64,000 nt of DNA from Negaprion brevirostris (lineage: Eukaryota). Positions 4,693 through 63,681 of this stretch are shown in pieces. How positions within the stretch are numbered: the stretch's first letter is position 1; each line of letters starts with the position of its first letter. The translations under genes were made by a program, and so were the position numbers. Location: positions 10,685,715-10,749,714 of the forward strand of contig JARDVH010000121.1 in assembly GCA_030324005.1 (NCBI GenBank), given 5' to 3'. The notes under the pieces are model-generated. The model had not been told where the DNA came from. It did not search any database and saw nothing but the letters and a program-made list of their open reading frames with translations.

Positions 4693-4728
4693 GAATAAAA
4701 GAGCTCCAAGAAAATCTATCATTTGCAG
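4693..4728 (+). CDS. Micro-exon E1, 36 nt, (G)IKELQENLSFA
   Basis: ttgttttttcattag|gaataaaagagctccaagaaaatctatcatttgcag|gtgaga. Confidence 0.85.
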
Positions 4729-5299
4729 GTGAGAGGGGAGATCAAACCGTAGGATTATGCTCTTTAATCGATGCAGGATTCAACACGAATGAGGATGAAA
4801 TCATTTAAGACAATTCCAATTTCCAAACATTGGAAAACCTTCGATTGGGTATGGCAGGAGATGCAATTCCATGTGTAATGGGTGCATTCATGCCCAATTT
4901 TATCACTAAAAAGGGACAGCACAGAACATACGAGTATAATTATCGCGCTCGGAATTGATTGTTGACAGGATCATAGATTACGACGGCAGTACCCCCTCCT
5001 GACCTGAATAACTACGCAACTACCACATGATCAAGCTCTCGAGAAGAGTGGAGTACCAAAACTCCAGCTATTTTCGGAAGCAAACCAAACAATACCCTTC
5101 CAAATATGATATGCACCCAAGCAGTTTACGTGAGACAAAATCTGAGTCAGCCCGACCACCAGCCTCATTCCATTAATACCACTGAATTATCGCGCCCTAA
5201 ATCCGAGAAGCTCCAAATCCCCACTTCCTCCTGATAGCTCCAAAGCCGATATGGAATGCTTGGCTGCCTTCTGAAAGAGCACTGAAGTTTCTGACCACA

Positions 5300-5900
5300 A
5301 AACAACTTATTCTCATGGCCCAACTATACACTGACCCAACTGCACATCTAACAATTTCATCCACATCAACTTCCTCCTCAATAACCTGTCCATTCTCACA
5401 TCATTATATCTGAAGCAATCTACCCAACTACCCAACTATCCAAAATTCCTGTACCCACTTAAGCATTTCACCGCCTTACCTATACACAAAACCCATGTAT
5501 CTACGAAGATCAAATTACTGTCCAGGCACCTACCTTGTCACAGAGCTGACGACAAGCATCACTGAAATACACATGTCCCTACGTAATTCGTTTGTGCCGA
5601 CATTTACACAATTCAGCCATTCACCCACTCACCCAATGATCCTTCCACTCATCTACCGGTAACCCAAGTACAAACTTCATCCATTTACGCAACAACAAAA
5701 TTAATCCATTTCATCCAACTTCACAAAAACTTAGCCACCTCACCTGCTCACGCACCGACTCAGCTTATGTATTTACCCACTTTAGCAGCTTACGCATCCA
5801 TCTAACGATCCGTCTACCCCAATCAAACATGAGTTAATTCATACAATCATTCCGTCATTTTTTCAATAAATGGTCCAATGAACGTTCACTCGCCCGTTCA
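5300..5900. repeat. C/A-rich low-complexity degenerate simple repeat (acccac/catcc motifs)
   Basis: Strong G depletion on the + strand with recurring cacccact/ctaccc motifs. Confidence 0.55.
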
Positions 5901-6296
5901 TGAATCGACCCTCAATTACTCGATCTTTAAGATTAAGTTCTTGTCCATTTCTAATTTCCATTGAACTTTAGTGGAAAGGGACTGCCTTCGCATCATCGCA
6001 CTCCATACCATGTGGTACATTCAAAATTTATCGTAGAGGGGAACAAAATTAAACCACACCATCGGAATGAATGAAGAAGAATCTCGTTTGAAGTTCCAAT
6101 GCTGTGTGACTGGGAAAAGGTTAGTCAGTGTTCACTTCGAACGTTGTTCAACTTGTGAAACGGATTATGGATGTTTTATTTCTATCTCATTGGCTGTGCA
6201 TGCTATTCGGCCTATTGTTTTCAACATAATTTGCCCCAGTTCTCAATGTAAATATTTTCTCCCGCTAATATTGCCGTTCTGGCTTGTTTGTCATAG

Positions 6297-6323
6297 AAAA
6301 ACAACTGGAGAAGAAAACAAAAG
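6297..6323 (+). CDS. Micro-exon E2, 27 nt, EKQLEKKTK
   Basis: cttgtttgtcatag|aaaaacaactggagaagaaaacaaaag|gtaagg. Confidence 0.88.
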
Positions 6324-6908
6324 GTAAGGGTCTCAAATGCGGAAATGCATGTTTTAACTGTCGTTAAGCCAAAAAGTAAACATGCATTTCTTAAGCCCGT
6401 TGTATAATTTCAAGTTCATTTCTTTAAAACTGGTTAACATTCGAGTGTTTCCATTCTATTTATATATGTTTGAGTGCAGTTTTTCAATATTAATTCCACA
6501 TTAACACATTCTACTAGCATGTCTTTACAATACCATAAGCCCTTTTTGTCTCCTCGATGCCATCACTAACACAACCTTTGTCTTAGAACCAGAGCGATTT
6601 GGTCACTCTTGCCTTTGCTCGGACCAATCTATGACTGACTATTCTGTCCCACTGTCTCCAGCACCTCTCCAATTACAATTCTTCCCATACTTAATCTCCA
6701 AAGATGAGTCCCATGAACAGGAAATGTTCAATCGTGTTCCATTTCCACAGATTCTGCATTAAAAATAGGGCATCTAAACTCAAAATAACCTATTAAACCA
6801 GCAACATACCGTCATGTCCAGCAAGTACCCACACCCACACGATCATTTTTTGTCAATTAGCAGGACAATGGGTGCTTTCGATGAAGATATCCCAGGAGGT
6901 AGAAGAAA

Positions 6909-7252
6909 GGGCGGCACGGTAGCGCAGTAGTAAGCGCTGCTGCTTCACAGCTCCAGGCTCCTGGGTTTGATTCCCTGCTTGTGTCACTGTCTGTGCGGCG
7001 TTTGCACATTCTCCTCGTGTCTGCGTGGGTTTCCTCCGGGTGCTTCGGTTTCCTCCCACAGTCCAAAGATGTGCAAGTTAGGTTGATTGGCCATGCTAAG
7101 GAATTGTTCCTTAGTGTCCAGGGATACGAAGGTTAGAGGGATTAGTGGGTAAGTATGTAGGGATTTGTGGGTAGGGCCTGGGTGAAATTGTGTTCGGTGC
7201 AGACTCGATGGGCCGAAGGGCCTCTTTCTGCACTGTAAAGTTCTAAGTTCTA
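6909..7252 (+). mobile_element. Full-length HE1/V-SINE-like tRNA-derived SINE
   Basis: gggcggcacggtagcgcagt...gggtttgattccc head, V-domain core tctgcgtgggtttcctccgggtgcttcggtttcctcccacagtccaaagatgtg, CR1-like tail gatgggccgaagggcctctttctgcactgta. Confidence 0.92.
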
Positions 7253-8387
7253 ATATATTGCCTCCTTTGAAATGAGTCACAGTGTTAAGCTTGCCAAGTA
7301 AATCACCCCTGAAACTTCGCTATATTGTGCTGTGACGTGTGACACAGTATATCACCAAATCAAATGAGGAGTATCTTAATTTGTGCTCCGAACCTAAGTG
7401 GCTCCTCCATAGCCCCCTGTAACTTCTTGGGCGTTGCTATCTATTTCTAGATGCGATCCTCCAGCCGGAAGCGTGGTCATTTTTTTATATTTGATATAAA
7501 ATCGGTGAGGCTGCCAGCATATCAATTTTATGAATTTTTTTTAATTCCCTCAATCAATAGCGAAATGAGTTCTTTTAAAATTCACCGAAAAATAGTAAGT
7601 TGCAGTAGAAAATAATGCAAATTATCCAGTCCCACCTCTGCTGACTTTTCCAAAATTCAGGTGTGCTTAATTTTTTCAGCCATAAATGCAGAACCCCTCA
7701 TGCACGGCTGCTAGCATATGTCTTGTCCACAACCCACTAAGCACATTACAGTGAAATATGCTTAGAACTTTCAACTGTCATACGGAGTCGAATGATGTCC
7801 TCAAGGTAATTTGTGAATGATTTTCAATCCATGGTCATTAGGATTTGGTCTTCGATACCTTCTCACCTTGAATTCAAGTGCTTGATGTTATGTAACCTCC
7901 TTAATTCCAAGGATTGAAATTCCACGGTTTCACATTTCTTCGTCTTGACTTTATTCCTCATTCATGCTAANNNNNNNNNNNNNNNNNNNNNNNNNNNNNN
8001 NNNNNNNNNNNNNNNNNNNNNNNNNNNNNNNNNNNNNNNNNNNNNNNNNNNNNNNNNNNNNNNNNNNNNNTTCTCATAATTGCGCGTTAGATATTTAAAA
8101 ATCCCTGGACGTTGGCGTCTCTGCCTAAGTGTGCCAGCCATTATCCAGCAACCGTTATTCTCGAAACACGTTTCGAAATGGACGTACCTTCTTTCAATAA
8201 CTTTGTATTTGCACACCAATTTCTGTCTGTTCGTTCACAATTTTCGACGCCATGCCCTGTACAGCAGATTGCCGTCCATAACAATTTACCAAAATTTCAC
8301 AGAATCACATAATGTATTACATAGTTCGTTGTCCTGCCCACTTCAAATGCCTGGCTTTCTTATTTTGTAATCAGAACCTCTGTACTA

Positions 8388-8705
8388 GGTAGCACTGTGG
8401 ATAGCACTGCTGCTTCACAGCTCCAGTGGTCTGGGTTCGATTACGGGCTTGGGTCACTGTCTGTGTGGGGCTTGCACGTTCTCCTCGTGTCTGCGTGGGT
8501 TTCCTCCCACAGTCCAAAGATCTGCGGGTGACGTTGATTGGTCATGCTAAAATTGTCCTTTAGTGTCCTGAGATGCATAGATTAGAGGGATTTGTGGGTA
8601 AAATATGTAGGGACATGAGGGTAAGGCCTGAGTGGAATTGTGATCGGTAAAGACTGGATGGCCCAAATGGCCTTTTCTTCTCTGTAGGCATTCTGTGATT
8701 CTACG
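8388..8705 (+). mobile_element. HE1/V-SINE-like SINE
   Basis: Same head, core and tail as the 6909-7252 copy. Confidence 0.9.
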
Positions 8706-9269
8706 ATACGTCTAATGCCACAGCTTTTAGAAAACAAAATTGTTACCGACACACAGTGAAGCTAATGAGACTGCTCAGGTTCCAAACGTCTCAAAAGCCC
8801 ATCGTTTTATTTGCTACATAGTCGATTTATTATTCTTACCGTAATTCTACGTTTTGGTCTGTTAATTTCTTCTCCATATGCCTTTGGCATTGTTTTCGAA
8901 GATTATCAGAAAGTGAACGTTTGAAGTATCTGGCTCATATTATTTTTCTTATTTTATATCAAATGATTCAATCAATTTCAGAGACGTTATTTGCGTTTAC
9001 AGATCTGTGTATGTGCTGATGAACTCACAATTCGTTTTTCCAGCAATTGGATTTCCTTCCGTTTAACATTCTGTAAGGCATCAGTTATTTGGACTCTGTC
9101 ACAAGATGGACTATCCGTACTTAGCAAAACCCAAATGCCGTTGTAGAACTTGAAGAGAAGACAGAAGCTCTTGGAGAAACAGGTGAGGGATATAATGCAA
9201 ATTATGAAAAAAAATATCGCCATCGGCAAATTGGATTTCCTGTATTTGGAAGTTGTCACCATTCATTGT

Positions 9270-10110
9270 ATACTGCTTCCATCGAAAATAAAAATGGTCA
9301 AGGTGTACAATTTGAGAGAAGACGTAACAATGTTGGCAGATAAAACCAAATGAGAACCAAAGATGTTTTACCGGTACGTTAAAAGCAGTACAAAGTAGAT
9401 ACAACTAAGGGAGAGGTAGGGACTACCAGCGATATGCATGCAAAATCAGGAATTGATTCAGAAACTGTTTTGAACCATGAGGGTTCTCGACATCGAGGGT
9501 AGTCAGACTGGAAGGAGAGGGATGATTCAGGCATCCCAGTGACAGACTGGTAATCTGAAAAAATATGGACAAAATGCACAGTGAGAGTGGAAGTACAGGA
9601 AGCTAGCTTCCTTGAAGGTGTACAAATTACGAAGGCCAGATGCATTTTCTGTTGTCAGATTACACCAAGGAAGAGATCGAGAATGCCCTGAACATGATGT
9701 CCTTATTCTGAATATTTCCAGGTACTTTACCAGAGTATTCACAACGTGCAAATTTGTAACACTATTCCAACACAGAGGAAATGATAGGACAGAAAACCGT
9801 AGATCTGTCATGTTGATTTCAGTGATGGAAGTTTACTGAAGACCATTCTGACAGACAGGTTGGATTGTCACTTTGAAAGGTGCAGATTGATCAGGAATAG
9901 GCAGCATGGTTCGTTTGAGGAAGATCATGTCTTACTGACCTAATCGAGATTTTTGAGGAAGTAACACCAAATATTGATCAGGGTAATGCATAGTGCATTA
10001 TCTACTCCGATTTTCGCAAGAGATCTGACAAGGTTTCACATAGCCAAACGGCCAAATGGTGAGATATAGGGGAAGGTGGCAGTTTGGGATCAAAATTGGT
10101 GCATCTATAG
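9270..10110 (+). mobile_element. Decayed CR1-clade LINE ORF2 (RT region) fragment
   Basis: Typical CR1 segments cagcatggttcg...agatcatgtcttactgacctaatcgagatttttgaggaagtaaca...gacaaggtttcacat; frameshifted. Confidence 0.8.
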
Positions 10111-12029
10111 GCGGGACTTTATATGCCCAACCCAAAAAAGGAAAATCCCGCTCCAAGGCAATGGCTCATCCATTGTAAGCCTCTTGCCCGTTCCGATTCT
10201 ATAGTGGCTGGGGCAGTTGAATTCTGGCGAAAGTGTTGGCTGATGTTTTTGCAAATATAAAACAGCTGGGATCTATGTTAATTGTTCTGTAGATTAATGA
10301 GTTAGATTGAACTGAGGAACTTGTGCTTGACACAAAATAATCACTACACCGTCGATAGGGAAGAAGATAGGTTTCGATTCTTGAATTATTTCAATGGTTT
10401 AATCAATGGAATTTAACTCAAAAAACTGAGGCAAAGCAACGGAATGATAAATTGAGTGCTTTCGAAGCTTCGATTGCACATACATAATTCTATTAAATAA
10501 TTTGTGCACATTCATTTTTGAAATATAAAGTGCAAGCAATCTGCAACATGGAACCGTCAAAAGCCATTGAACACCTAACACTTACTTCAGCATTCGATTA
10601 GTTCATTAGTGATCGCAAACATAACTCAAATTATTTGCTTCCACACAATATTATACCAACATGAAACAAAATGCTTAGTTCTACTTCTCCGAAGCACAAT
10701 TTATACCTTATTCCAAGGTTCTTGTGGTAGAAAGCGTAGAACTGTTCAGAGTTCTGCTCTCATTCGTGTCAGGAAGTTATTTCCTCTGTCTTCCTGAACT
10801 GTCGACTGGTTGTTCAAGGTAACAGTCCCCGTTATTGTTTCCTCCTACGGAAATGTTTGAATATCTCGATGATATCACTCACGAGTCCTTCACAATCAGT
10901 GGATTGGAAAGGATGTTTTTTCTGCTAGATGTTTTACTACTTCAGCAAAACATTGCCGATATTATCCCTGAGCTCAGATGGAGATGATCAATTCCTCATT
11001 CAAGGTAAATTTGACCAAATAAAACAGAAACAAAAATTGTGTACCCCCATAACTACGGAAAGCTTTAATTCTGCCTAGTCCACAACCTTCCCTTTCACGT
11101 TCGATTAGATAAATTATGAAACATTGCCACCATATTCTGGAATATAGACCTTTCCAGTGAACATCAGGATAGAATTTATTTTTCGGTAGCATTGACAATG
11201 TATGCCTGTATTGCTGCGGAATATATAATCAGTTCAGTGAATGCGTGAATTGAACATTCAATATGCTGAATAAAGATGGACGTGGATGGTTCACATGTCG
11301 ATTCCAAGGTCCTGATGAAAGCAACGTTTGCTTCTGTTTCATTATTCACTCATGGCAAATGGGCGTTGCTGGTTCGGCCAAATTTAATGTGCATTGTCCT
11401 TTTGAAGGTTGTGGTGAGCTCCATTCTTAAATAGTTACAATCAGTATAGTGTTGGAAGACATAGAGTGCTACTACATATGAAGCAGAGAACGTGCTTTCC
11501 TCGATTGCAAAACGATAACCGGTGTTACTCTAATTTCTGCCGAATTGATCGAGGAAATATTTCTCATCACAATTAAATTGTGCTGCAGAAGTTTGTATAA
11601 CATCTGAGAATCAAATAGCACAATTCTATGTGTTTCACAAGAATTTAGCAACAAACAGAAAACAATAAAGTAAGGCCTATGATTTCGAAATGAGGGAGAG
11701 ATATCTAATAAACTGCATTGCATTACACGCTGATTCTCAATTTCATCAGGCATTCAATACCATTGACTTCAACTGTTTGAATGCAGGTCCTTGATGAGGC
11801 ACGTCAGTGAGTTGTCCATCCTGCTTTGTACACGCATGCAAAAGCTAACATGCAAACCTCTCGTATGGGCAGTTTACTAACGAGAATCACAATGCAAGTA
11901 TGTACGAGAAAGAACGAGCATACAGAACAGCAGGTTTCCTTGTATTTCTACCACATTCTCCCTCAAACACTATGATCTCGCCATTTCCTCACAGTCTAAA
12001 AGCACTCCTGAATCTTGCGCCCAACGGAG

Positions 12030-12380
12030 ACAAGCCAGGCGGCTAGTTTGGCATCACATCCACAAACAGTGCGTCCTGTCACCACTTTTCACAGAATGCA
12101 GTCCAGGAAAGCACCACAGTTCCTTCGGCAGTATTATCCAAACCCATGGTCCTGTACAATGATGGAGCATTGGCTGGAATTTATGCTCCAAAACATTCAA
12201 CATCCTGATTTGCAAATATATTCCTTCACAATTTGTTGAGTCAAAATCCTGAAACTCTCCCTCAAACAACTTGGTGGAAGTACCTTGGAATGCAGATCGT
12301 CACTACATTCTCAAAGGAAATTAGGGATGGACAATAAATGTTGGCCAAACCACCAAGGCACAAACACTTTGAATGAATAC
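12030..12380 (+). mobile_element. Old non-LTR LINE 3' end, family undetermined; related copies at about 11335-11460(-), 30960-31160, 47220-47340 and 55560-55800
   Basis: Shared motif gtcaaaatcctg...ttctcaagggcaattagggatgggcaataaatgctgg, in diverged form, at several places in the window. Confidence 0.65.
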
Positions 12381-12478
12381 AAGCAATATTGAAAAGGGTG
12401 TGTGCATTTTCTTTTAGAATACTGTACTCAATGTCTCTTTCTTAAGCCATATCTTACATTCGCCATTTACACCTGCAG

Positions 12479-12505
12479 CACAAAACTTACTCAAGAAAGA
12501 CAAAG
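12479..12505 (+). CDS. Micro-exon E3, 27 nt, AQNLLKKDK
   Basis: catttacacctgcag|cacaaaacttactcaagaaagacaaag|gtagta; the donor is weaker, but the peptide matches the ..KKxK class. Confidence 0.78.
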
Positions 12506-15390
12506 GTAGTATCATTATGTTATTAAAAAATGTATTTCCAAAAACATTCAGATTTGATAGAAGTATTTCCCGTTGCTGCTGATCAAGAAGGTGCCCATCA
12601 TTAACTTTAAATAATGCCCTGCCTCGGTTTTAGCAAAGGATTGAGGCATTATTCAGTTCGAAGTTCATTTCTGTCTACGGAAGGAATTCTCCCAAACCAC
12701 AATTCCCGTCACCCTCCATATTTCACATGATAGGTTTACCTAATTATTAAACATCCTTGGACATTAAGGGCTATCCATCATGGTCAATCCACCAAACAAT
12801 TTTAAGCGCATGAAACCGATGGAACCCCTCTCAGACAAGATGCAAATTCTGCACTAAAAGCCAGCAGAATCGGACTGGGGTCTTGGTATTGAGAGGCAGT
12901 CCTATAACTACAGTGCTAGTATTCCTCCGATAGAATTGTCCCAATCACATGGAGGAACTGCATAAATATACATTCATTTTCACTCAGCAGGCAATATTTT
13001 GCCTTCAACTGACTATGTTGTATTCGTTGTTCACTGTGCTCTCACCTCCCGATTGGAAGGATGAAATTAAAAGTTGGTGACAGTTTTGCTGACAACTTAA
13101 ACCAATCTTCAGGTGCCTTTATCTTTAGTGAGCTGTTATGTGAAAGGTCCATTCCCTTTTAATCTGACCTGTCCGTTCTCGTTCCGTTGAGGATTCTAAT
13201 GAATCTCAACAAAGGCTCCCGAAAGTAAGCAACACGATTGCACTAACAATGGAAACCACGTTGCTATCTGACATTCAATCAAAGACTTGAGATTTTCCCT
13301 CTTTTTTGGCAGGGCGCCATTGGCATNNNNNNNNNNNNNNNNNNNNNNNNNNNNNNNNNNNNNNNNNNNNNNNNNNNNNNNNNNNNNNNNNNNNNNNNNN
13401 NNNNNNNNNNNNNNNNNNNNNNNNNNNNNNNNNNNNNNNNNNNNNNNNNNNNNNNNNNNNNNNNNNNNNNNNNNNNNNNNNNNNNNNNNNNNNNNNNNNN
13501 NNNNNNNNNNNNNNNNNNNNNNNNNNNNNNNNNNNNNNNNNNNNNNNNNNNNNNNNNNNNNNNNNNNNNNNNNNNNNNNNNNNNNNNNNNNNNNNNNNNN
13601 NNNNNNNNNNNNNNNNNNNNNNNNNNNNNNNNNNNNNNNNNNNNNNNNNNNNNNNNNNNNNNNNNNNNNNNNNNNNNNNNNNNNNNNNNNNNNNNNNNNN
13701 NNNNNNNNNNNNNNNNNNNNNNNNNNNNNNNNNNNNNNNNNNNNNNNNNNNNNNNNNNNNNNNNNNNNNNNNNNNNNNNNNNNNNNNNNNNNNNNNNNNN
13801 NNNNNNNNNNNNNNNNNNNNNNNNNNNNNNNNNNNNNNNNNNNNNNNNNNNNNNNNNNNNNNNNNNNNNNNNNNNNNNNNNNNNNNNNNNNNNNNNNNNN
13901 NNNNNNNNNNNNNNNNNNNNNNNNNNNNNNNNNNNNNNNNNNNNNNNNNNNNNNNNNNNNNNNNNNNNNNNNNNNNNNNNNNNNNNNNNNNNNNNNNNNN
14001 NNNNNNNNNNNNNNNNNNNNNNNNNNNNNNNNNNNNNNNNNNNNNNNNNNNNNNNNNNNNNNNNNNNNNNNNNNNNNNNNNNNNNNNNNNNNNNNNNNNN
14101 NNNNNNNNNNNNNNNNNNNNNNNNNNNNNNNNNNNNNNNNNNNNNNNNNNNNNNNNNNNNNNNNNNNNNNNNNNNNNNNNNNNNNNNNNNNNNNNNNNNN
14201 NNNNNNNNNNNNNNNNNNNNNNNNNNNNNNNNNNNNNNNNNNNNNNNNNNNNNNNNNNNNNNNNNNNNNNNNNNNNNNNNNNNNNNNNNNNNTGATCATG
14301 GTAAATGCCACTGAGTCGAGCAAAATGCCCATGATTACGAGAAGACACCCTGGGTCAGATACTCTGCCAAGTAGTCGGTTTCTATGACTGGTCACATTTC
14401 ATTTCCTTTTCGATGAAGGTCAATTAAACAACTTCTCAAGCATATACCTAACAATGTATAACGGGACATCAAGAGAAGTACGACCATTGAAAAAAAATGG
14501 ATGTTGTGGGTAGCTTAAAAGCAATGAATTGTGAATATTCTCAGAGCATGAGAAAGGTGTAGAAGGCACGCTAGATCAGAATGGGAAATGACAAGAATAA
14601 CAGTAAGCTTCATATTCCCTGTCCATGACAAAAACGTTTTTGTAAGTTACGGATCGGCTCATTGGAACATATTACTAATATCATGTCATTTGCCTTTATA
14701 ACCTAATCGCCATGTAAAGTATTGCGCCTGCTATTGTCAAAGTGTAAGGGATAATGAAGGTCATATTATTTTGTAACTATGCATTTTCAATCTCAATCTT
14801 GAACATTTCAGATAACCAATGCTGACAGCGGAATTCCTGTAGCGAGTTCCAATATTCAGTGAATCTATCTAAAAATAACGTGTTGGGTTACCACATCTAA
14901 GATGCTGGCAATAAATGTTAGCTTACCTATATGTTACAATCACTGGCAACAAACAAATATTTTCTCAGTATATCCACAAGACTTTGATAATCTAGCACCA
15001 GAGTTTGTTCAGGCCTTAACCCATTATGTTGAGTGAATTTTAACTGTAGTCTTAAAGCCTTGGCCTCATAATCCATCCCGTTTATATTGATGCTAATATG
15101 GTGCATCATATGTTTGAGCCCACAAATCGAAAAAAATTCTGACGTATGTGGCCACAGTTGCCCTATTATTCCATTTCTGATCTACCAGCAATGAAGCTGT
15201 TACATTCTTGTCTTTTTTTGTCCCACAGTCCCGACTCAAACTGCGTTAAGAACCACATGGCTTGTGTTGCTTGCTAGACATCCTGTTGCCCTGCGTCAGA
15301 TTAATGTCTCTTTGGATTAAACTTGAGATTGTGAGAAACATGTACAAGACATACATCTGGTAAGTTATGTGCAACGTTCGTTTTGTCCAG

Positions 15391-15426
15391 AACTGCAAGA
15401 AGCAAACAAAAGTCTAGATGAAACAG
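15391..15426 (+). CDS. Micro-exon E4, 36 nt, ELQEANKSLDET
   Basis: ttcgttttgtccag|aactgcaagaagcaaacaaaagtctagatgaaacag|gtacct. Confidence 0.83.
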
Positions 15427-52845: not shown

Positions 52846-52859
52846 GCAATTCCATCTGC

Positions 52860-53400: not shown

Positions 53401-54234
53401 GCGGGAATCCCAAGTACCTTTTCCTCCGACTATCGGCTTATCTGCGATCGAGAAGGTAGGCTTCGTGCTTGACTCCTCCTTCACCTGAGAATTCATTTTC
53501 ATTGTGGAAAGTCATTCTCGACTTCAAGAGACTGTCTAAGGAAGGGAAAAAGAATCATAGCCGAGTCTCCCTGAAGCAGCATTCAATATGCATGTTTTAT
53601 TATAATGTTCATAATGTTCATTCCAGCTGGAACATCTCTATTTTAATAGCTTACAATAACAGGAGGTTCCCGCAATGATTTTTTTCTTGTACGCATTGGA
53701 GTTGTTTGGATACATGCTACGAGGTTGTCCCCTTTTTCTAGGCAGTCTGTAACTGGCGTCATAGTCTTACACAAAGTTTCTAGCTATTGAATGCTGGAAC
53801 ACGGACAACGTTATTTGCCTGGTGAGTTGTTGCCCCTTCGGAATTCTCCACACAACAGGATTTTGTACTATCTGGCTGTGAAAGAACGACAGATTTCTAT
53901 GTGCTTAAACTATTTAAGTAAATTCGTGATTATGCCGATTTACGCCTAAAGATCACTCTTGGCCGTCTTCAATGATGGATCAGTAACGAAAAGTTGGTTG
54001 TTACGCTTTATTCCGTTGTTCATTTTTTGTTTGTTTGTTTTCGTATTTGTTACCCTCTTATTTGCTTACGATAAACAATCGCGAGGATTATTGATTTTAT
54101 TATTGAAACATGTGGTCATTCGGTCCCATTGTCACAGTGCTGGCTTTCTGAATGAGCCAATCATTTCAAACCACTCCAATTTCTACTCACATTGGACGAA
54201 ATCTCCTTCCTTTTCAGATATAAAGCCAATTGTC

Positions 54235-54660
54235 ACAGATAAACGCAAAATGCTACGGATGCTGGAAAATAAGAGAAAAACAGAAAAATGGTGGAAAATC
54301 TCAGCAGGTCTGCCAGCATCTTTGGAGAGAGAGTAGAGCCAACCTTTTGAGTCTAGAAATGACCCTTCGTCACAGCTGAGAAGAAAGAGAGTCAGCAGAG
54401 CTTTATACAATGTGATTAGGGAGGGGTGTTGGAATTGCACAAAGTGAATATAAATGAGCATGTAGAATGCTGATAAGGTGTTTAAAGTTTCCATTAAGTG
54501 ATCAGAATGGGTTAATGGCAAAACAAAGTTGCAGCTTGGTAATGGACTCTCTATGTAGTATGGTACTTAACCTGAAGAAGGGACGTAGGATGGAAAGAAG
54601 GAGGGTGATAAAATGGAGAATGGGATCAAATGTAAAGTAATCCAATTACCATTTGAATAA
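54235..54660 (-). mobile_element. Penelope-derived fragment sharing an arm with the 25662-25855 palindrome
   Basis: aaaatggtggaaaatctcagcaggtctgccagcatc...gagtctagaaatgacccttcgtca. Confidence 0.65.
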
Positions 54661-55141
54661 ATCGAGTGAACCAAACTTCACCGCGACATTTTTGGAAGAC
54701 ATTTGACCTATTCAACCCTTCACTGCGTGGAAGTTTTTTATTCACATGTCTGCATTGCTGATTTGGTAATTAAATTACACCTGCACACCTTTGTTTTCGA
54801 TTCTTCCACTGGTGGTACAGGACAGTACAGTCGAGCAGTGATTGGCATTGTTGCTTTAGGGCGCCAGGGACCCGCGTTCAATTCTGCCTTCAGCAACTGT
54901 ATGGATTTTGAATGTTGTCGCAGTGAATCTCCTCCTGATGATTCCGTTCTCACTGTAACTTTCCTCCGGATGCTCGTGTCTTCTATAGTCCAAAGGTATA
55001 CGAACTGGCTGGATTAGCCATGCTAAACTGCCTTTCAGCGTCCGAAAATTGTAGATTAGGGGATTTAGCTTTGGATAAAATCTGAGTAGAGCTGTATTGA
55101 AGGGTCTGTGCAGATTCAAAGGACTAAATGGCCCCTCCTTT

Positions 55142-55143
<2 letters not shown>

Positions 55144-55188
<45 letters not shown>

Positions 55189-55210
55189 ATATATATATTT
55201 ATATATACAT
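55144..55210. repeat. (TG)n followed by (TA)n microsatellite
   Basis: Seen directly. Confidence 0.95.
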
Positions 55211-55510
55211 ACCCCCACGCCCTTCCCTCATTGATATTTTTGCATTTGCATCTTCATTTTCTGATGAGACTGCTGTGTGGATATTTCATCACGTGCTATT
55301 ATTTAACTATTGGTTAAACGTTCACGAGTAGTGTAATACCCCCAGTATGACCAGTTCCTTTAGGCCACAAATCATGTTGGCGCTGTCATCATGTTATTCG
55401 GAAGTTCGCTTTTCAATATGCATGGCTTGCTTACTTGAATTTCCTTACTTTGTCCAATTATGCTTTTTTTCTTGTATTTCAAAGTGGTGTCACCCATGTT
55501 TCGTTTTCAG

Positions 55511-55546
55511 AGCTGGAAGCTTTGCAGAAGAAAATTAATGAGTTAG
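55511..55546 (+). CDS. Micro-exon E14, 36 nt, ELEALQKKINEL
   Basis: tgtttcgttttcag|agctggaagctttgcagaagaaaattaatgagttag|gtgagt. Confidence 0.9.
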   Translation, partial: SWKLCRRKLMS

Positions 55547-56327
55547 GTGAGTTGTTGGATCTGTACACTATTGGAAATCATACCTTTCCGTCCAATCACC
55601 CACCACGCAGACTTGGAAACATATCGGCCGTCCCTTCATTGCTGCTGGGTCAATATCCTGCAACTCCCTCCATTGCAGCAATCTGTGTGCGCCTACATCT
55701 TAGGGATTGCATTTCGCGAAGGCATCTCAGCACCAATTTCTCAAGGGTTTGTCAGGATGGACGAAAAATGCTGGTCAACTAGCAAGCCCCACATCCCATC
55801 AATTGCTGTTGCTTTTGGAATGACGACTGCACAGTACGCCATTGTGGCATTGTGTTTTTGTCGGAAAAGAAGGCGACACTCAATTTGTTTCCAGTTACCT
55901 TCATGTTCCCAATACAGTGAGAAAGATCACATATTAGCTAAATAAAATACATTTTGAAGCATGTGACAATGTATTTAATCCCATCTCCATGTCTCAATCA
56001 TTCATCCCTTGATCGTTGAAATCTATAATGAAACCTCGACGAATCTAACGTTAATGCTTCCCCTATAGTGTGTTGCTTGTTATTATTGCGAATTTTTGCA
56101 TTCCTTTATTAGTGACCACACTTAAAAAAGAGCGGCCTCTCATCCACCCTCACGTTAAGCCATTAGCTCCGACCTGACTCGGCGAATGGTGGAACAACTG
56201 GATCAATTTTTTCTTTCGTGGCGCTCAGCAATTTTTAAAGTCATTTGCGAGGCACTTACTTGCGCAGAGGCAGCGAATTCAACGCCATGTCCGATTGAAC
56301 GTACGTCCTTGTTTTACAAATTAACAG

Positions 56328-56345
56328 AAGAAAAGATAAAGGCTG
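56328..56345 (+). CDS. Micro-exon E15, 18 nt, EEKIKA
   Basis: cttgttttacaaattaacag|aagaaaagataaaggctg|gtgaga. Confidence 0.7.
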
Positions 56346-57473
56346 GTGAGAACGTAATTGTAATTTCTTTGAGTCCAGCATACTTACTGTTTGCTTGTAT
56401 ATATTGTTGTTTTCTTTCAACTGCCTTTTTGCTCTCTTCTTTTGGACCCTATCAAAAACACTATGTCGTTGTCAAAAGCAGATTATATTTGAGGAAAACT
56501 TACTTAAAGATTGATATATTGTTGGAAAGTTTTTTTTCAAAGGAGGAGAGTGAAACATACATGTTTGAACAGATGGATGGGTTAAGAATGTTGTACTCAC
56601 GATATATCCAGATATTCACAGGGTTCACTCTGGAATTTCAAATCCAGATCCCTTCCTTATGCTCCCATGAAGTAACTTCCGCCATTTTCTCGACGTCTAC
56701 GAATGCAATTTTATACAGGAACCTACCTCAAAGCGCAAAGACAAACAGACACTTGTACCGCTTAATTTGAGACGTATTATTTGCTGGTTATTATGGTGTG
56801 GCGGGCCAACAATGTCTCAGATCAGAGTTGAGTGTGATCACCCATCCACAGAGGACGCGGGTAACATGCATTGATCTCCTTATTTGAAAATGGAAATTTA
56901 CCATGACTTTTAACCGCAAGCAACAAGGTCAACTCTGATCCTGAAATCTATGGTTTCGAATCACGCTCTGGCGACTTCGGGCAATAATGCAGGTTGACTT
57001 TTCCAGTCCGATACTGCAAAAGGGGTGTTGTGTTCTTGGAGATGTCTTCAATCGGATTTAGCATCGGATTTAGTTTCAGACGACGAATCATTGGGAGTAC
57101 CCTCTGACTTTGATGTTCCTGGTAGCCTGCGCCGATATACAGCTGCAATTGAAACTGCACACTTAAACCAGCTGATTGAGATGCTGTGCTGTTTTCTGAA
57201 TACTGTGATAAGCCGATTGGCTGCCTCTTTTTGGCACATGACACCTGCGTCTGCATTTAAAACAACGAATCCATTGACTGTTATGAGGAGGTTAATGCCA
57301 ATTTATAAAATAGGATTTATGTTAGTTCTTGCCTTCTCGGCCATCAATTTATGCGGTCTCTGTTATTGATATTATTTTCTGACGGTCTGCAACTTGCGCC
57401 CGGAGCAGTGTGAAAATTAAAGTGCCACAATCTGCGCAGTTTAAAAATATTCACGTTTGTATAATTTAAACAG

Positions 57474-57500
57474 ACGAAATAAGTCTTGAGAAAATGAGAG
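57474..57500 (+). CDS. Micro-exon E16, 27 nt, DEISLEKMR
   Basis: tttgtataatttaaacag|acgaaataagtcttgagaaaatgagag|gtatgt. Confidence 0.72.
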
Positions 57501-57719
57501 GTATGTGTTTCTTGTACATTTTCCATGTTTAAATTTCCAATGGAGAGCGAGAGTGATTGATTGTTTCAGAGCAGGAAGGCAGCAATGGAAATAAATGATC
57601 AAAATGTGCAATTGTTGCACGTGCATCTGTTTCTTTTTTTTGTCGATAGTTAAATCCAGACTGCGCTTCTGATCGATAGCAAAGAGCATTTCAATTAAGA
57701 TAAGAACTTCGGCACTTCC

Positions 57720-58025
57720 CAGGGTGGGAATGTTAATTTCTACGGGACGTGCGATTAAGGCAAAAGGAGGAAAGTTTAAAGGAGTTTGAGAGATTTTCTC
57801 TTTTGCGCAGAGTTTGTTAAGTACTTACAACGCAATGTCAGAGGAGATGGTGCAAACAGATACAAATGCAATGTTTAAGAAGCATTTTTTCCAGGTACAT
57901 GAATAAGAGGGAATAGTAGGAATCATATGGAGGCAAAATCTACTTAGTTCAGAGAGGCGTCATTTGCGGGCACAGGTTTGGTGGGCCGCAGGGACTAACC
58001 CTGTCCTCGTGCTCTGTTCTACTAT
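57720..58025 (+). mobile_element. Decayed CR1 3' end; further decayed CR1 pieces at about 51240-51720 and 58500-59180
   Basis: ggaggaaagtttaaaggag...gtgggccgcagggactaaccctgtcctcgtgctctgttcta resembles the CR1 3' region. Confidence 0.55.
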
Positions 58026-60162
58026 CCGTTCGACGGCAGGGCCTGGCGCGTATAGGAATAGGAAAAGCATCTTGACCCGGAAGATTGGGATAGGGGTTAT
58101 GAAACAAAATCTCTACCAGTTTCTCAAAAAATGTGAGTTGCACTCTTACTGTTTTATCCCCTTTCGCTTGGGAAAATCCTTTATATATTATACAAAATTC
58201 CCTTTAGGAAAGTGATATCTGAAGTATGTTGACATACTTTCAAACAAAAAGTTCCCTGCAAACAACAAAGATAAAAATGTAAATATCCCACCAAGGAACA
58301 TTGTGAATTCAATTGTATTCTTCTGGTCATGTTGATGAGGAAAGCAGCTTCCACACCCACTCCATGAATTTCCGTCTTGATCTGAATAGACATCGATTTT
58401 GAGAAATGACTCACCGGTCTGTATAAAAAGAAAATGAGAATCCTGGGTAAGAACGGTTTATCCAAATCGGCATTAAGACAAAATAGCATGACTGAAGACA
58501 GCGAATGCTGGCAAATGTTCATTCTGAAGCTTTATTCGAATGCTACCAAATTTGGAGGAGGGAAAGCAGTGAGAATTGTTCAATTCGTCTTTCATATAAT
58601 ATATAAACTAATAGAGCGGTCGGCAAGCACCAGAAATATAGTCATATAGCAAAGTGCATTTCATGTGTCATGCATTTTGATAGAAGGGATATAGAAAGCA
58701 ACATAACTTTAATCGCAGAGTAGCAGGCAGAAACAAAAGAGCAGGGACATCGATCTGTGAAGATGGCAGAATAGTTTGACAGTAAGTAGCAACGTTAATC
58801 AGCGGTATTGCGCATTAAACAAAGGAATTTATGGTGCACCATTCGAGAAATCTGGCCAGGCCCCAATTGGAGCGTTGTGTCCAGTATCGAGCAGCACATC
58901 GTGGAAGGATGTGAACGTCCTCGAGAATGTGCAAAAGAAAGTCAGAGAGGTTCCAAGGCTGCAGCGCTTTAGTTTAGAGTTAGGTTATAAAAGACGGGAT
59001 TGCATCTGTTTGCAGTAAAGAGTAATGACAGAAGATCCCGTAGGAATACAGGAGATTTTGACGGATGTTGATGAAGTAGAACAGAGAAAATGTTTCCGAT
59101 TGAATGATATCACGTGGGCAAGCAGAAACCGATCTAACAGTACGGCGCGTAACGCAGGGGGATTCAAGGACATTTCAGCCTTCCTTAATCAATGAGTGGT
59201 AATAGGGGTGGGAAAAGAGGAGTGGTGGGCTGGTGATGGACGACTTGTGAATGAAATGATCAGCCCTTAGAGGAACCAACACTGCTAGCCTTTGAGAAGT
59301 TCAAAAGCACTGACCCGATTCATCTGTGGAGAGCCGACATTGACTCAATTGCCTAAATGTCGCTTTTGTCTTGCAAGAAATACCATATCATTTCGGTCAA
59401 CTTCATTTCTACTCTTCTCTGTTTGAAAGAGTAGAATCCGAGTTTTTGTAAACTCTCGAGATGATAGAAGTCTCTTGTCAAGTATTGGAAGTAATCTCGG
59501 ACTCCCGTGTGCGTGTGAATTTTCTCTCCCAGATATACAGTTTTGTAGATTGCCTTCTGCCACAGTGTGGAGTTTTGAAATCGGTTGATATATGTGATCG
59601 CCAACGAATTGCCTGGGTGGATCCCGTCCGATTTTCTTTTCACGAGAATTTAATGGAAAACAATTTGGAATAATGATAATGAATGCATGAACATACTGAA
59701 TCACAGTATCGACAGTGCACAATTGTTTCTTCCCATCAGTCGGTAATGCATTGACAAATGGACGCAGATTTAAGGTTTTAAGAAATATAGGCGCGCATAT
59801 ACACACATATTGAAAAATGACTTTACATTTAATGTATGCATTCTAAAAAAAAGGGTCATGGAGAACGTGTATGGCGGCTGCGTACTATATTCCAATCTCC
59901 AATCCGACTGAAAAATCGGCACTGTCCACAAAAAAAACGTTATAGGTACCAAAATGTGCTGTCTGAGATTCATTTCACCCCTTGAAAATGTGTCAAAAAT
60001 TCAAGTTATGACTGCGTGTGATGCAACGGACTTTTTTCTTTACATTGGTGCTGCTGGTACACTTGTCAGTTGTTAGATCACGATCCAGCAATTAATACGA
60101 CGAAAGGTATACACAAGTAGTAAATTTTCGTAATGGAGTTTTTTTTTCTACTTATTTCACAG

Positions 60163-60198
60163 AGTTAGAGAAAATGAGGGCGGACAGCCTAGCTTTAG
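60163..60198 (+). CDS. Micro-exon E17, 36 nt, ELEKMRADSLAL
   Basis: ttttctacttatttcacag|agttagagaaaatgagggcggacagcctagctttag|gttagt. Confidence 0.85.
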
Positions 60199-62980
60199 GT
60201 TAGTTAACACAGTGGATCCTTGTTCGCGTTTCCAACTCCCACATCCACTCTCCTCCCCACTCCCGCCCCCACTCGCTGCAACATATTCACGTTTTTCCTG
60301 TCTTCTTGATATTGTTTTTATTTTGGTTTCGTTCAGCGGTAAAAGGGGGGCTTGTCTGCAACCTGCATTTAACTCATCGAAATCACCCTCCCGAAATCAA
60401 CAACGTTATGGTGATCACTAATCTTACCATTAATGTCACCATCACCAAAATATTTCAGGCCGCCGTGCCTTAATGGCACGTCTTCAGCTTGCATCCCTGT
60501 TTATTCCTTCGAAAGCGATGTCGTTCAGCGTGCATTTTGTACATTACAATTGTGGACTTTTGATTGTAAAACGATTGCAGATACACTCATCAGGAACAGC
60601 ATCATAATTAACTGCAAATTATTCAGAACTTCTTGTTGCCAGGTTCTGAANNNNNNNNNNAACATATTTATAGATTATGAACTAATTCTGGCCTTGCCAG
60701 AGACTCTCAGATACCAACAATAAATTACAAAAGAAAGTGACGGAACAATGTTTGAAATGTGTGTGGTCCAATTGGAAATCTGTCACGCGAGCATGAATGG
60801 GCTTGAGGAATGGAAGAAAACTAGGTAAATGAAAATGTATGCAGATGAAGTTACATCTGCAACGTTTATAAGTGCAACGATGAGTGGCCAGTAAATTAAT
60901 ACAAACCACGTACTTATATCTGCATTACATTTCGCACGCGGCTGCACACGAGGACTCATCGGATAATTGCAATGCATATGTGGTTGACAATGGCGGAGCA
61001 AGCTGCTGGAAACACAAACTGATTATTGGGCTGTACAAACTGCGGAATTCTCCGATGTGAGCAAGACAGGAGAATTTAGCGCTCAACCAAATCCCCATTC
61101 TTAGAAAAGTCCAAAGAATCACAGCCGCAGATAATGGCATGAAATACTGGTCAAAATTAACTAGTCGAGAAAGAAAAGAATATACTGAGTCTTCATTAAA
61201 CATTCTATTGCCCAGTTGGACGAATATTGGTTTTGAAGTTCCGTCCTCCATCGGTTACATCTGGCTGCACCTTAAAAGAGGCGCTAAGCATCACCAGAAA
61301 CATTATCTCAGGCATTGCACAGGAATTTCCTTGAAAGTTCAAACTTTGGTTGCTAATAATTTTGCACAGAAAGTCATGGATAATGTGATCGAAATTGGCG
61401 ACTTCGATCCAATCACTTAGCAACAGAGTTAGGAAGTGTTACAATGCAGAGGTTGATCTCTGTTTGAGGCATAATGCTGAATCCTCCAAAGAGGAACTGG
61501 TCATCTCATAATCTTTTAAAAGTGTATGGAAAGGTGAACTGTCCTTCAATATTGTTTATTGGTTAACGAATAGAATTACCTGAAACTCACTTTAAAATGA
61601 ACATTTAACTTCTTTAAGGGAACTTTAACTAAACAAGGAACATATCGAATAAGATTCAAGCATAAATTATGTTCAAATAAATGCAATGCCCATTCATTAA
61701 TATAAAAAATGCGATAATGGAAATCAGTCACTCTGAAAAAAATATATACAACCAGCATTTGTGTTTTTTGGAACTTCCTGGAGTATCATGGTTGATTTCA
61801 CTGTGTCTACGTTCTTTCTGATTTGGTACATTTCACTGGTTAGATGGTGCACTGTCTTAAGAGATATCTGAAGCTGGCAGAGTGGAGAGCTGCGGTCTCC
61901 CTCTCGGGACTTGAAACGTGGAATTTGCTATATCTTGTTCCCCCCGCCCCCTTACACTTTATTTTATACCTGTGCTGACATATCAACTTCCCAGTAGTAG
62001 GATTGGCATGATTTTCTCAACATTATCACATTCAAATATTACAGGTTCGTGGTAGCTTTGTGCTTGCTTCAAACTGATTGGGCGATTTAAAAAAAACACA
62101 GATTGTCTTATCAAAGCTATTGTTTGACTTCTGATACAAATGTTTCAGACTGGATTCTGTATGCTTTGCATTTTAATCCTCCAAGCTCTGAAACAAGCAT
62201 TAGTTTTTAAAGGGACTATGCAATGTTTTTCGTGTCTGTCCTCCAGCATTTTCCAATTCTTTACATTTTTTAATGTCGAATTGCAACTTCACAAGTTTAA
62301 ATTAGCCACAGCAGGCAAATTCGGAAGTATTAAAACTCCTTATGAGTAATTATTTCGAAGCGACCACCGAACCAATACCTTCTCCAAACAGTAAGCCCCA
62401 GAGTACTCCAATCCACAGATTGCGTTGTCAACAATACCGCCAACTAATGCGCAATCAGGCACTCGGACTACCCGCCCCATTACATGCAGGATAAACAACA
62501 TACGCAGAGAACTCCTGATCCCAAAAATTACCCCAATGCCATAACAACATCTCACTACTTTTAAGACACCTTCTTCCGAAAACTCTACGCCCCGACTACC
62601 GTATAAATAACAGGCAACGCACCCAACATCGCCAGGACCCGACCAACCGCAAATTACCCTCCATCCACAGCTGCAACTAACTCGTATCCCCTTTCAACAC
62701 CAGACCTGATAGCACGCATAAGATACAGTGGTTTGCGCGCAATTTTCACTCTACTGCACAAGGTAGATTTTGACATTTGCATTGTAGTAACTTCCGGTTT
62801 GAATCTAAGGTTTGAACATAAATATCCTAAACTCGGGTATACCGAAATAATGTATGAACATCTGGTGAAGAGAAGTAAATAATTACTTTAACGGAATCAC
62901 AGGGCCAGAAAAACAAAGCGCGGAAGGAGGCCGGATCTGCCAAATTTAAACGTGTTTACTTTTTTTTCAAATAGTACAAA

Positions 62981-63106
62981 GGGCGGAGTTTTAACGGCAC
63001 GTATGTCCAAGTTTCGTACGATACCGCTCGAGGCCAACGGAGAATGCTGTTCTCCAAGCCCGGCCGGTCCACGGAATCAGACGGCGGTGACGGTAAAATT
63101 CCAGCC
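62981..63106. mobile_element. Short GC-rich MITE-like element with imperfect terminal inverted repeats; similar element at about 10109-10229
   Basis: Starts ggcggagttttaac; the end gtaaaattccagcc reverse-complements to ggctggaattttac. Confidence 0.5.
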
Positions 63107-63654
63107 AAAGTATTGCAGTTTGACTTGAGACATGCAAGTCACTTATTCCAATGGGACATATCTAATGGCTTTGCACAATATTCAATCGCATCTGATGCCA
63201 CGCACTGATGTTGCTAAATCGTTGTCTTCCTGCATCAGTGTAATGAAATTATCATGTAACCATTTATCGCTTTCTTGCGGATCAAGCTACACTGTCATAC
63301 CTCAATGCGGTCTATGTCAATCTACTCCGCAATCCCTCTCAACAATGTCCAACTTGCATCTTCCCGAAACGAAGCCATCATCCTGCTGCACTTAAGAAGA
63401 GATTTTCGTACTTCATAATGACTTCATTATTTCAATTGTTCATAACGATTTAGAAATCTGATGGTCCCAGATATTTCTTTCAAGCATCAATATCAATTTG
63501 CCCTAACGCCTTCAATGTATGAATTCCGTCACCAATAGGTAACTGGTGCAAATATTTGCATTCAACCTATGATAACAGCGGATAAATTCAGAGGCACAAC
63601 TGTTCATTCATTTTGAATAAATGTGCAATCATCGTTTAAATATTCTTTGAACAG

Positions 63655-63681
63655 AAGTGACGTTCAATCAGAAACTGAAGG
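63655..63681 (+). CDS. Micro-exon E18, 27 nt, EVTFNQKLK
   Basis: tattctttgaacag|aagtgacgttcaatcagaaactgaagg|gtgagt. Confidence 0.82.

Follow-up and report, generated by a model that had tools for sequence, protein, structure and literature searches.

A shark sequence that very likely forms the middle of a half-million-base gene with over 100 mini-exons

The stalk of CD23 (FCER2), a type II membrane protein that ends in a C-type lectin domain, is made of a 21-residue, three-heptad repeat encoded by one 63-nt exon each, and the rods of TRIM proteins are antiparallel. As outlined in excerpts of two papers (PMC4046983, PMC8813856), the chicken BG genes (BG0 and BG1-13; zipper protein) have signal, Ig-V and membrane exons, then 13-36 exons of 21 (24) nt, with a 3'UTR exon last; the BG tail acts on actin-myosin, and the second of these sources speculates about free B30.2 partners for it (PMC8813856). 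Butyrophilins, in the portions of PMC7348870 and PMC8813856 drawn on here, are described as having Ig-V and Ig-C domains, a membrane segment, a short heptad region and a terminal B30.2 domain.

We have analysed a 64,000-nt stretch of shark DNA (the window, on scaffold C121) which, to judge from its sequence, is very likely the middle of a half-million-base gene with 100-plus mini-exons. In a splice-site scan of the window with approximate weight matrices, the + strand gave 10 matches at 27 nt and 7 at 36 nt, the − strand one at each length. Filtering for phase-1, stop-free and Pro-free segments rich in E/K/Q/R/D/L left 16 coiled-coil-like candidates of these two lengths on the + strand, a count that may include an alternative acceptor and a repeat-derived candidate, compared with none on the − strand and a mean of 0.2 (maximum 1) in 40 block shuffles of the window. 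The same filter applied to six other lengths divisible by 3 returned no candidate on the + strand. The resulting set (Table 1) comprises 16 firm and two plausible exons that together make 540 nt, are free of stops and occupy 0.9% of the span. The exons at 9147-9182 and 12479-12505 were missed by the plain splice scan and recovered by the exon profile; among the differences listed in run X3, none lies within 9126-9203, around the former. The third-class exon at 44361-44387 resembles exons at window-relative positions -86504, -68908 and -3402.

Two further segments were considered. That at 7122-7148 was rejected, lying inside a SINE-like repeat for which the region shows 48 overlapping copies, and that at 10978-11004 is doubtful, its acceptor being weak and its inclusion breaking the 36/27 register. 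The preliminary description had proposed a hidden micro-exon coiled coil of a chondrichthyan, with coding sequence below 1% of the span and no stop, and had suggested the minus-strand and shuffle comparison reported above; the strand, shuffle and profile controls bear this proposal out, and its end points, 4693 and 63681, coincide exactly with exon borders. Its count of 18 segments totalling 531 nt holds up less well: the array itself stands, but a 531-nt set requires the rejected and the doubted segment, this being one 18-segment combination of that total and not necessarily the original one.

Table 1. Predicted exons of the window, the array that contains them and its terminal exon (positions relative to the window)
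Feature	Position	Strand	Remarks
36-nt phase-1 exon, 12-residue unit, type A	4693..4728	+	AG/GT, profile score 26.3
27-nt phase-1 exon, 9-residue unit, type B	6297..6323	+	profile 39.4
36-nt exon, type A, weak acceptor	9147..9182	+	profile 31.1
27-nt exon, type B, weak donor	12479..12505	+	profile 28.9
36-nt exon, type A	15391..15426	+	profile 25.5
27-nt exon, type B	21822..21848	+	profile 35.3
36-nt exon, type A	23923..23958	+	profile 23.1
27-nt exon, type B	24182..24208	+	profile 21.0
27-nt exon, acidic variant	27980..28006	+	profile 21.1
36-nt exon, type A	31611..31646	+	profile 31.7
27-nt exon, type B	42518..42544	+	profile 38.3
27-nt exon, third class, ends in A before gtaagt	44361..44387	+	splice scan, outside repeats
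27-nt exon, acidic variant	47778..47804	+	profile 29.3
36-nt exon, type A	55511..55546	+	profile 40.3
18-nt candidate, plausible only	56328..56345	+	weak acceptor; one similar 18-nt candidate at +160068
27-nt candidate, plausible only	57474..57500	+	profile 13.5, acceptor -3.2
36-nt exon, type A	60163..60198	+	profile 29.6
27-nt exon, type B	63655..63681	+	profile 20.1
Array containing the entire window	1..64000, reaching beyond both ends	+	exon profile
Terminal B30.2/SPRY exon	+266,064 to +266,584 (C121 about 10,951,778-10,952,298)	+	acceptor and stop read directly

The micro-exon candidates continue past both ends of the window, so that what had been taken for an 18-exon tail or stalk is rather the middle of a predicted array of 109 exons over 538 kb, encoding 1,121 residues with no stop and a single Pro. 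The most upstream exon found (window-relative -270,994, 36 nt) has an in-frame ATG near its start, which is possibly the start codon, and the final 27-nt exon is at +261,602. With a leave-one-out profile, 71 of 2,971 27-nt and 66 of 2,457 36-nt candidates on the + strand score at least 16, as against 1 of 2,805 and 1 of 2,355 on the − strand, that pair being an inverted duplicate. Adjacent exons alternate in length in 81 of 108 cases (53.4 expected; 0 of 10,000 shuffles as high), and the 27 neighbours that do not alternate break the register in many places. None of the 5,886 junctions that exon skipping could generate creates a stop, while reading 98 exons in the other two frames brings up stops in 67 and in 51 of them. 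Array exons have a median pairwise nucleotide identity of 48% (maximum 85%) and vary least at second codon positions. Undetermined bases (N) make up 9.4% of the gene and about 6.3 kb of the 54-kb interval upstream of it.

A 36-nt and a 27-nt exon together encode 12+9 = 21 residues, or three heptads. Across 38 such A-B units the a positions are hydrophobic in 95-97%: all three take L/I, while the d positions take L/M, A/T and K. The regular block of the array has a hydrophobic period of 3.54. E-K/R pairs sit at g-e', where 40 pairs are attractive and 10 repulsive (0 of 5,000 shuffles as high), although the units are descended from one another and the statistic thus describes one repeated ancestral pattern, not 38 independent cases. 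Because these charge pairs attract, the predicted register favours parallel, in-register pairing of the rod, most simply as a dimer.

The terminal B30.2 exon is intact and in phase with the array. It matches Pfam SPRY (E 1.7e-15) and not Pfam PRY, and its closest solved structure is BTN3A1 (PDB 4n7i, E 3.6e-24), with further matches to pyrin, TRIM21 and TRIM7. Orthologues exist in two shark orders, Scyliorhinus torazame GCB75680.1 (71%) and Chiloscyllium punctatum GCC29430.1 (64%), both of which are B30.2-only models with no rod. A downstream B30.2 exon had been anticipated as one of two options and is present at +266 kb; the other, a CD23-like gene with a C-type lectin, falls because the final exon of the array is this B30.2 with its stop.

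Scaffold C121 bears six such B30.2 exons, and a seventh lies at 93.46 Mb on C84, the scaffold on which 17 of the 28 MHC class I matches fall (none of the 28 is on C121). Paralogues on both scaffolds also have a predicted rod of 27/36-nt phase-1 micro-exons, 21-nt exons occurring only in some, and keep one-to-one orthologues across shark orders. In a quick, midpoint-rooted tree, most of whose outgroup rows are without names, one branch (SH-aLRT 100) separates 15 family B30.2 rows from 9 BTN, 19 TRIM and 16 unlabelled rows. CpG is retained over the cluster (observed/expected 0.65 vs 0.29), a separate epigenetic oddity that weakly hints at low germline methylation and perhaps at germ-cell use.

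Homologues are found in sharks, rays and chimaeras, namely in Callorhinchus (XP_042192744.1, XP_042191566-8), Scyliorhinus canicula (XP_038671249.1, XP_038672306-10, XP_038668997.1), Leucoraja (XP_055510696.1) and Narcine (XP_069775384-90). These RefSeq/GenBank records have automated names and are mostly 5'-partial. In the C84 paralogue, four predicted exons in a row align end to end with residues 230-270 of XP_038672306, one junction residue apart. Of the seven internal indels that distinguish isoforms in four species, five measure 9 residues and none 12. All seven family models scanned contain only SPRY, with no RING or B-box. The 12+9 pattern is clear in only two of seven models (8 and 3 pairs; the others 1, 1, 1, 0 and 0), one pair also appearing in 1 of 14 TRIM controls, and blastp of the rod against the stored homologues gave no match at E 1e-3. 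The gene belongs to an unnamed chondrichthyan coiled-coil-B30.2 family visible to automated annotation only in pieces. The earlier label 'unannotated' does not wholly hold, as there are relatives in the form of partial RefSeq models called TRIM-like, BTN-like or 'nuclear-pore anchor-like'. The literature searched yielded no published description of such a family, a whole set of very large genes that annotation has missed or misnamed.

The reading that we prefer, at a probability of roughly 0.55, is a cytoplasmic coiled-coil rod without an ectodomain that would serve as a length-adjustable tether or scaffold for paired B30.2 heads. The exons of the array would be spliced together into a parallel rod at least 1,100 residues long (~170 nm), holding the heads at a set distance, with runs of non-standard 27-nt exons forming stutters or hinges. 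With all exons in phase 1-1 and all skips stop-free, exon skipping would change only the length of the rod and leave the head unharmed; such an exon grammar would make rod length tunable by splicing with exact junctions. The stable orthology of the paralogues suggests that the head binds a fixed cellular partner and not a changing pathogen ligand. The family may have grown by exon-plus-intron and whole-gene duplication, perhaps out of an MHC-linked B30.2 gene.

The preliminary description raised the possibility of an immune-type receptor; with neither an Ig exon nor a convincing membrane exon found, that reading lacks support. Searches for Ig-V, Ig-C and RING/B-box in 1,726,804 non-N bases (1.73 Mb, gaps outside the search) were negative (best E 0.32; Ig-V 2.2, Ig-C 0.88), with five spiked controls at E 7e-17 or better (V controls 6e-38 and 2e-20; C without a spiked control), and no V-set was seen among 150 scored of 927 candidates from C121 6.2-11 Mb. 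These results make it unlikely that we are dealing with a BG/butyrophilin-type membrane protein, whose cytoplasmic tail would be the giant rod and whose membrane exon, alone or together with Ig exons, would lie in a gap or far upstream. At seven gene starts no membrane exon was convincing; there were a few weak signal-like candidates, and one such candidate also came up on the control strand. Neither Ig nor membrane exon was found between the head-to-head pair whose starts are 14.5 kb apart (1.7 kb N). Assembly gaps do occur in every 5' interval examined, and a 100-nt exon could fit in one. The membrane-protein reading also draws on the match to BTN3A1, the MHC class I matches on the scaffold of the C84 paralogue and the micro-exon principle shared with BG tails, as far as the excerpt of PMC4046983 describes it. 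The hydrophobic starts of Callorhinchus XP_042192744.1, where basic residues follow, and Leucoraja XP_055510696.1 would be in keeping with a membrane anchor or signal; against this, the N-terminal 328 residues of the former have a best E of 7 in this genome, a search of low power, and a hydrophobic start in a Hemiscyllium model falls mid-orthologue, so that such starts can be prediction artefacts.

Slightly less likely again is a much larger transcription unit, about 1.5 Mb long (9.41-10.95 Mb), of which the array would form the distal part. It would have two terminal B30.2 exons used alternatively, and the upstream one (10.36 Mb) could be passed over in splicing because all exons are phase 1. 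Such an arrangement would leave the rod mechanism intact but would alter the gene boundaries. Strand and phase are shared, the 54 kb from the upstream B30.2 to the first exon compares with array introns of up to 40.8 kb and a like layout on C84 (56 kb), and neither a distinct promoter nor a distinct first exon emerged; yet the first exon found has its in-frame ATG, though Met occupies that site in 4 of 47 type A exons, and the RefSeq models of relatives start within the rod and end at their own B30.2. We regard as improbable a sensor of TRIM type that lacks a RING, in which an antiparallel rod would carry B30.2 domains at both ends and recognise repeated pathogen surfaces: the structural matches to pyrin, TRIM21 and TRIM7 and a multigene cluster with one possibly MHC-linked member are set against the lack of a RING or B-box in the searches above, charge pairing that suits a parallel rod, a B30.2 clade separate from the 19 TRIMs, and stable orthology across shark orders. 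A decaying 5'-truncated duplicate or chance set of pseudo-exons might account for some weak splice sites and for the promoter and start exon not being seen, but is hard to credit given 137 profile matches on the + strand and 2 on the −, old exons that still keep frame and core positions, and intact B30.2 orthologues in two orders.

Beyond the tether or scaffold, we entertain, as a doubtful extension, a 4.7-Mb germline-hypomethylated cluster in cartilaginous fishes whose giant genes, possibly single transcription units reaching 1.5 Mb and ending in alternative B30.2 exons, would use hundreds of frame-neutral micro-exons to encode splice-adjustable molecular rulers, forming an Ig-less third branch beside BG, whose tail is long and without B30.2, and butyrophilin, whose tail is short and has one, and providing a natural example of the free B30.2 partners speculated about for BG tails (PMC8813856). 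The predicted repeat is like that of the CD23 stalk in having 21 residues and three heptads, but uses two exons per repeat and leads to a B30.2 end. TRIM proteins with B30.2 (TRIM21, TRIM7, pyrin; shark TRIM39-like and A33-like) likewise join an intracellular coiled coil to this domain, whereas the predicted shark protein has no RING/B-box detected, a far longer micro-exon rod, a parallel-type charge pattern and a separate B30.2 clade. With butyrophilins, as the cited excerpts portray them, it shares a heptad region followed by a terminal B30.2; it differs in a rod of more than 1,100 residues, in the missing Pfam PRY match and in a B30.2 that a quick tree places outside the 9 sampled BTNs. The chicken BG genes, on the same partial accounts, resemble it in building a long coiled coil from many tiny in-frame exons and in forming a tandem family that extends to other places in the genome; BG has an MHC-linked member, and one shark paralogue may be MHC-linked too. 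The shark gene differs in its 109 or more 36/27-nt exons, its B30.2 end and the lack of any Ig-V or convincing membrane exon in the sequence searched. The unnamed chondrichthyan models belong to the same B30.2 clade or are direct orthologues, and share the coiled coil upstream and 9-residue isoform cassettes. Two designs known apart, the BG micro-exon rod and the butyrophilin B30.2 head, would thus be combined here, and because cartilaginous fishes are the earliest-branching living lineage of jawed vertebrates and one family member may be MHC-linked, the family bears on the origin of BG and butyrophilin tails.

A scan of the window for AG-exon-GT segments, made with approximate splice matrices, found ten 27-nt matches on the + strand against one on the − strand, and seven 36-nt matches against one. 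With a peptide filter added, 16 candidates stood on the + strand and none on the − strand, against a mean of 0.2 (maximum 1) in 40 shuffles, so the strand and shuffle comparison proposed in the preliminary description favors the micro-exons it reported. That description had claimed at least 18 exons from 4693 to 63681. Both end points are exon borders in the splice scan, and 16 firm exons plus two further plausible ones are retained (540 nt, without a stop); a candidate at 7122-7148 was dropped as part of a high-copy SINE-like repeat, and one at 10978-11004 is doubtful. Candidate 54218-54244, with a weak GC donor, is also doubtful and is still counted among the 109 exons of the full array. High-copy SINE-like repeats (8388-8709, 32544-33531, 34430-35196 and others) mimic 15- and 27-nt exons on either strand, and the 15-nt matches were discarded as SINE. 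Two of the firm exons, 9147-9182 and 12479-12505, come from an exon profile. Over 8750-25600, contigs from one DNA run (X4) are near-identical, with 0-4 differences per contig among those listed, and contigs from another (X3) diverge by about 3-5%; among the X3 differences listed, 17 fall within 8856-9257, and the stretch 9126-9203, which surrounds exon 9147-9182, has none, a weak indication.

The window exons are part of a longer candidate array, which together with a terminal B30.2 exon we call the rod gene (coordinates are window-relative, signed outside the window). A wider scan of 664 kb gave 62 and 51 matches on the + strand against 7 and 4 on the − strand. The exon profile, trained on + candidates, scored leave-one-out and covering 864 kb, selected 71 of 2,971 27-nt and 66 of 2,457 36-nt segments on the + strand, against 1 of 2,805 and 1 of 2,355 on the − strand, and this sole − pair is an inverted duplicate. 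Between −270,994 and +261,628 the array holds 51 exons of 27 nt and 47 of 36 nt from the profile, 98 in all, plus 11 other 27-nt exons, with introns of median length 3.6 kb; from 20 extra candidates, one of 27 nt (-48275) and eight of other lengths were kept out of the catalog. Exon lengths alternate at 81 of 108 neighbor pairs, against 53.4 in shuffles, and the remaining two frames carry stops in 67 and 51 of the 98 exons. Joined, the 109 exons would encode 1,121 residues with one proline and no stop, and none of the 5,886 possible skip junctions creates a stop; since stop-free reading is built into the filter, what carries weight is that the candidates favor one strand, come in two lengths and alternate, and that the other frames contain stops. 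Further exons are probably missing, because 9.4% of the 537,575-nt span is N. The inverted duplicate (one 36-nt and one 27-nt exon, -354,463 to -352,816) lies in an upstream paralogue and holds the only − profile matches scoring at least 16. Identical 27-nt exons 1.3 kb apart at -378,099 and -376,778 come either from an exon duplicated recently together with its intron or from a repeat in the assembly.

A B30.2 exon had been predicted downstream of the micro-exons, and one is present: a phase-1 acceptor at +266,064, in phase with the array, opens a B30.2 exon closed by a stop codon. It matches Pfam SPRY (E 1.7e-15) with no match to Pfam PRY, its closest solved structure is BTN3A1 (E 3.6e-24), and a structure and cluster atlas returned generic SPRY clusters only. 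Two in-frame acceptors lie six bases apart at this exon (L052:2064 and 2070). Just 3' of the cluster, open frames at +289,245 to +291,112 (L054-L055) resemble a Myb/SANT-like, Harbinger-type gene.

One 36-nt (type A) and one 27-nt (type B) exon together encode 21 residues. Across 38 such A-B units the three a positions are hydrophobic in 97, 95 and 97%, and at the three d positions stand L/M, A/T/L and K, the last in 31 of 38. The regular block has a hydrophobic period of 3.54. In a parallel arrangement, 40 g-e' pairs are attractive and 10 repulsive, exceeding all 5,000 shuffles, a result that counts as one conserved pattern since the A-B units share ancestry. With a coiled-coil rise of 0.1485 nm per residue, we infer a parallel rod ~170 nm long. 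Runs of other 27-nt exons interrupt the register and may form hinges.

For the start of the gene, the preliminary description had suggested a check for Ig exons upstream, as in BTN or BG genes. A search of 1,726,804 bases with Ig-V, Ig-C and RING/B-box profiles gave no match (best E 0.32), whereas five spiked control domains were all recovered at E 7e-17 or better. Blastn among the paralogous 5' intervals gave repeat-like matches only, and the N-terminus of a Callorhinchus homologue had no match in the Negaprion brevirostris genome. An in-frame ATG lies near the start of the rod gene's first found exon, and likewise in the first exon at 7.124 Mb; as a start codon it is suggestive only. Candidate exon -280362 was dropped, as it reads as part of a LINE reverse transcriptase. 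The sequence 5' of the first exon also contains, at -292,600 to -288,500, a unit of about 1.9 kb in three diverged tandem copies.

Intervals 5' of the rod gene and its paralogues
Interval	Length	N content
5' of rod gene	54 kb	about 6.3 kb
9.39/9.41 Mb, C121 (scaffold carrying the window)	14.5 kb	1.7 kb
7.12/7.14 Mb, C121	16 kb	7.2 kb
Two intervals on C84 (second scaffold)		

The rod gene belongs to a family. Five B30.2 paralogues lie on C121 (6.23, 8.31, 8.81, 8.85 and 10.36 Mb, the last broken by a 10-N gap) and a sixth at C84:93.46 Mb, all six at 35-39% identity; the C84 gene has a second array just downstream. Stretches sampled from 6.2 to 10.95 Mb contain the same 36/27 exons, some genes with 21-nt blocks, and two head-to-head pairs. 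Two paralogues, at 7.14-7.32 Mb and 9.43-9.54 Mb, begin with matching exon blocks and continue with 21-nt single-heptad blocks, a layout that points to duplication of whole genes and to a BG-like segment. MHC class I matches number 17 of 28 on C84 and 0 of 28 on C121, and a class II search gave no informative match. Those at C84 81-101 Mb lie amid a dense B30.2 field with some V-set exons, probably an extended MHC with TRIM/BTN genes.

An initial homologue search at E 1e-20 yielded none of 133 candidates. The closest single-domain library matches are chondrichthyan (Callorhinchus, Scyliorhinus, Leucoraja, Narcine, Cetorhinus, Chiloscyllium, Hemiscyllium, Rhincodon); the Callorhinchus model (1,697 aa) is named 'nuclear-pore anchor-like' and the others TRIM-like, A33-like or BTN-like. 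No member outside cartilaginous fishes was found among the about 35 matches, of some 165, whose names were looked up. In a fast phylogeny of 59 B30.2 domains, built without the C84 paralogue and both direct orthologues, a branch with SH-aLRT 100 separates 15 family rows from 9 BTN and 19 TRIM rows, and Scyliorhinus XP_038668997.1 is paired with the paralogue at 8.85 Mb. Orthologues of the rod gene's B30.2 in catshark (71%) and bamboo shark (64%) are B30.2-only models.

The clusters also retain CpG. CpG o/e is 0.65 over 1.08 Mb inside them and 0.29 over 0.23 Mb outside. For three repeat queries, two of them related SINE-like copies and thus not independent, CpG decay affects 39-46% of sites within the clusters and 66-71% beyond them, with similar non-CpG divergence (0.11-0.14 against 0.11). 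The domains span about 6.2-10.9 Mb of C121 and 93.36-93.53 Mb of C84, with edges near 6.2 and 93.53 Mb respectively; because the final 45 kb of the rod gene is already CpG-low, the match to gene bodies is inexact. This pattern suggests low germline methylation over megabases, and expression of the cluster genes in germ cells would be a guess.

In our preferred reading, to which we assign a probability of roughly 0.55, an N-terminal attachment point would hold a cytoplasmic parallel rod, the rod would set the distance of paired B30.2 heads from it, and exon skipping would adjust its length. Predicted splicing has indirect support. On XP_038672306, residues 230-270 are covered end to end by four successive exons predicted for the C84 paralogue (24, 27, 27 and 48 nt), neighbors being separated by a single junction residue, and more exons match this protein in order upstream. 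Seven internal isoform indels, a count excluding one 16-residue N-terminal difference, comprise five of 9 residues (seen in 4 of 4 species), one of 6, one of 7 and none of 12; RefSeq isoforms of this kind would rest on RNA alignments. Against this count the lack of any blastp match of the rod peptide to stored homologous proteins and a 12+9 pattern clear in only 2 of 7 family models. That the exon array is dead or arose by chance is scarcely credible.

A membrane anchor hidden in the rod protein is a less likely reading. Two homologous models open with a hydrophobic stretch that would fit an anchor, and the non-N sequence at seven gene starts in five intervals gave no convincing membrane exon. 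Rather improbable, and compatible with a rod, is a single 1.5-Mb transcription unit with alternative ends; one phase is common to all exons, so the array could run on from the upstream gene past its B30.2. A TRIM-type sensor is very improbable, given the absence of RING/B-box matches in the bases scanned and the stable one-to-one orthology of the paralogues. Because of that orthology we favor a fixed cellular partner for the B30.2 head over a pathogen-sensing role.

The rod gene would work as though a BG tail had been fused to a butyrophilin head. BG and butyrophilin genes have Ig exons and TRIM genes a RING/B-box, whereas the rod gene locus matches neither and a domain scan finds SPRY alone in 7 of 7 family models. 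As described in PMC4046983 and PMC8813856, BG genes carry 13-36 exons that are 21 or 24 nt long and lack a B30.2, in contrast to the 36/27-nt exons and B30.2 end seen here. We found no published description of this chondrichthyan coiled-coil-B30.2 family, in a search of largely open-access literature; the portions available of PMC7348870 do not mention such genes, and those of PMC10115646 mention neither B30.2 nor butyrophilin. The family appears to combine two known designs, a BG-type rod and a butyrophilin-type head, in an apparently undescribed way. Its nearest functional model would be the zipper protein derived from BG, for which PMC4046983 describes an action on actin-myosin.
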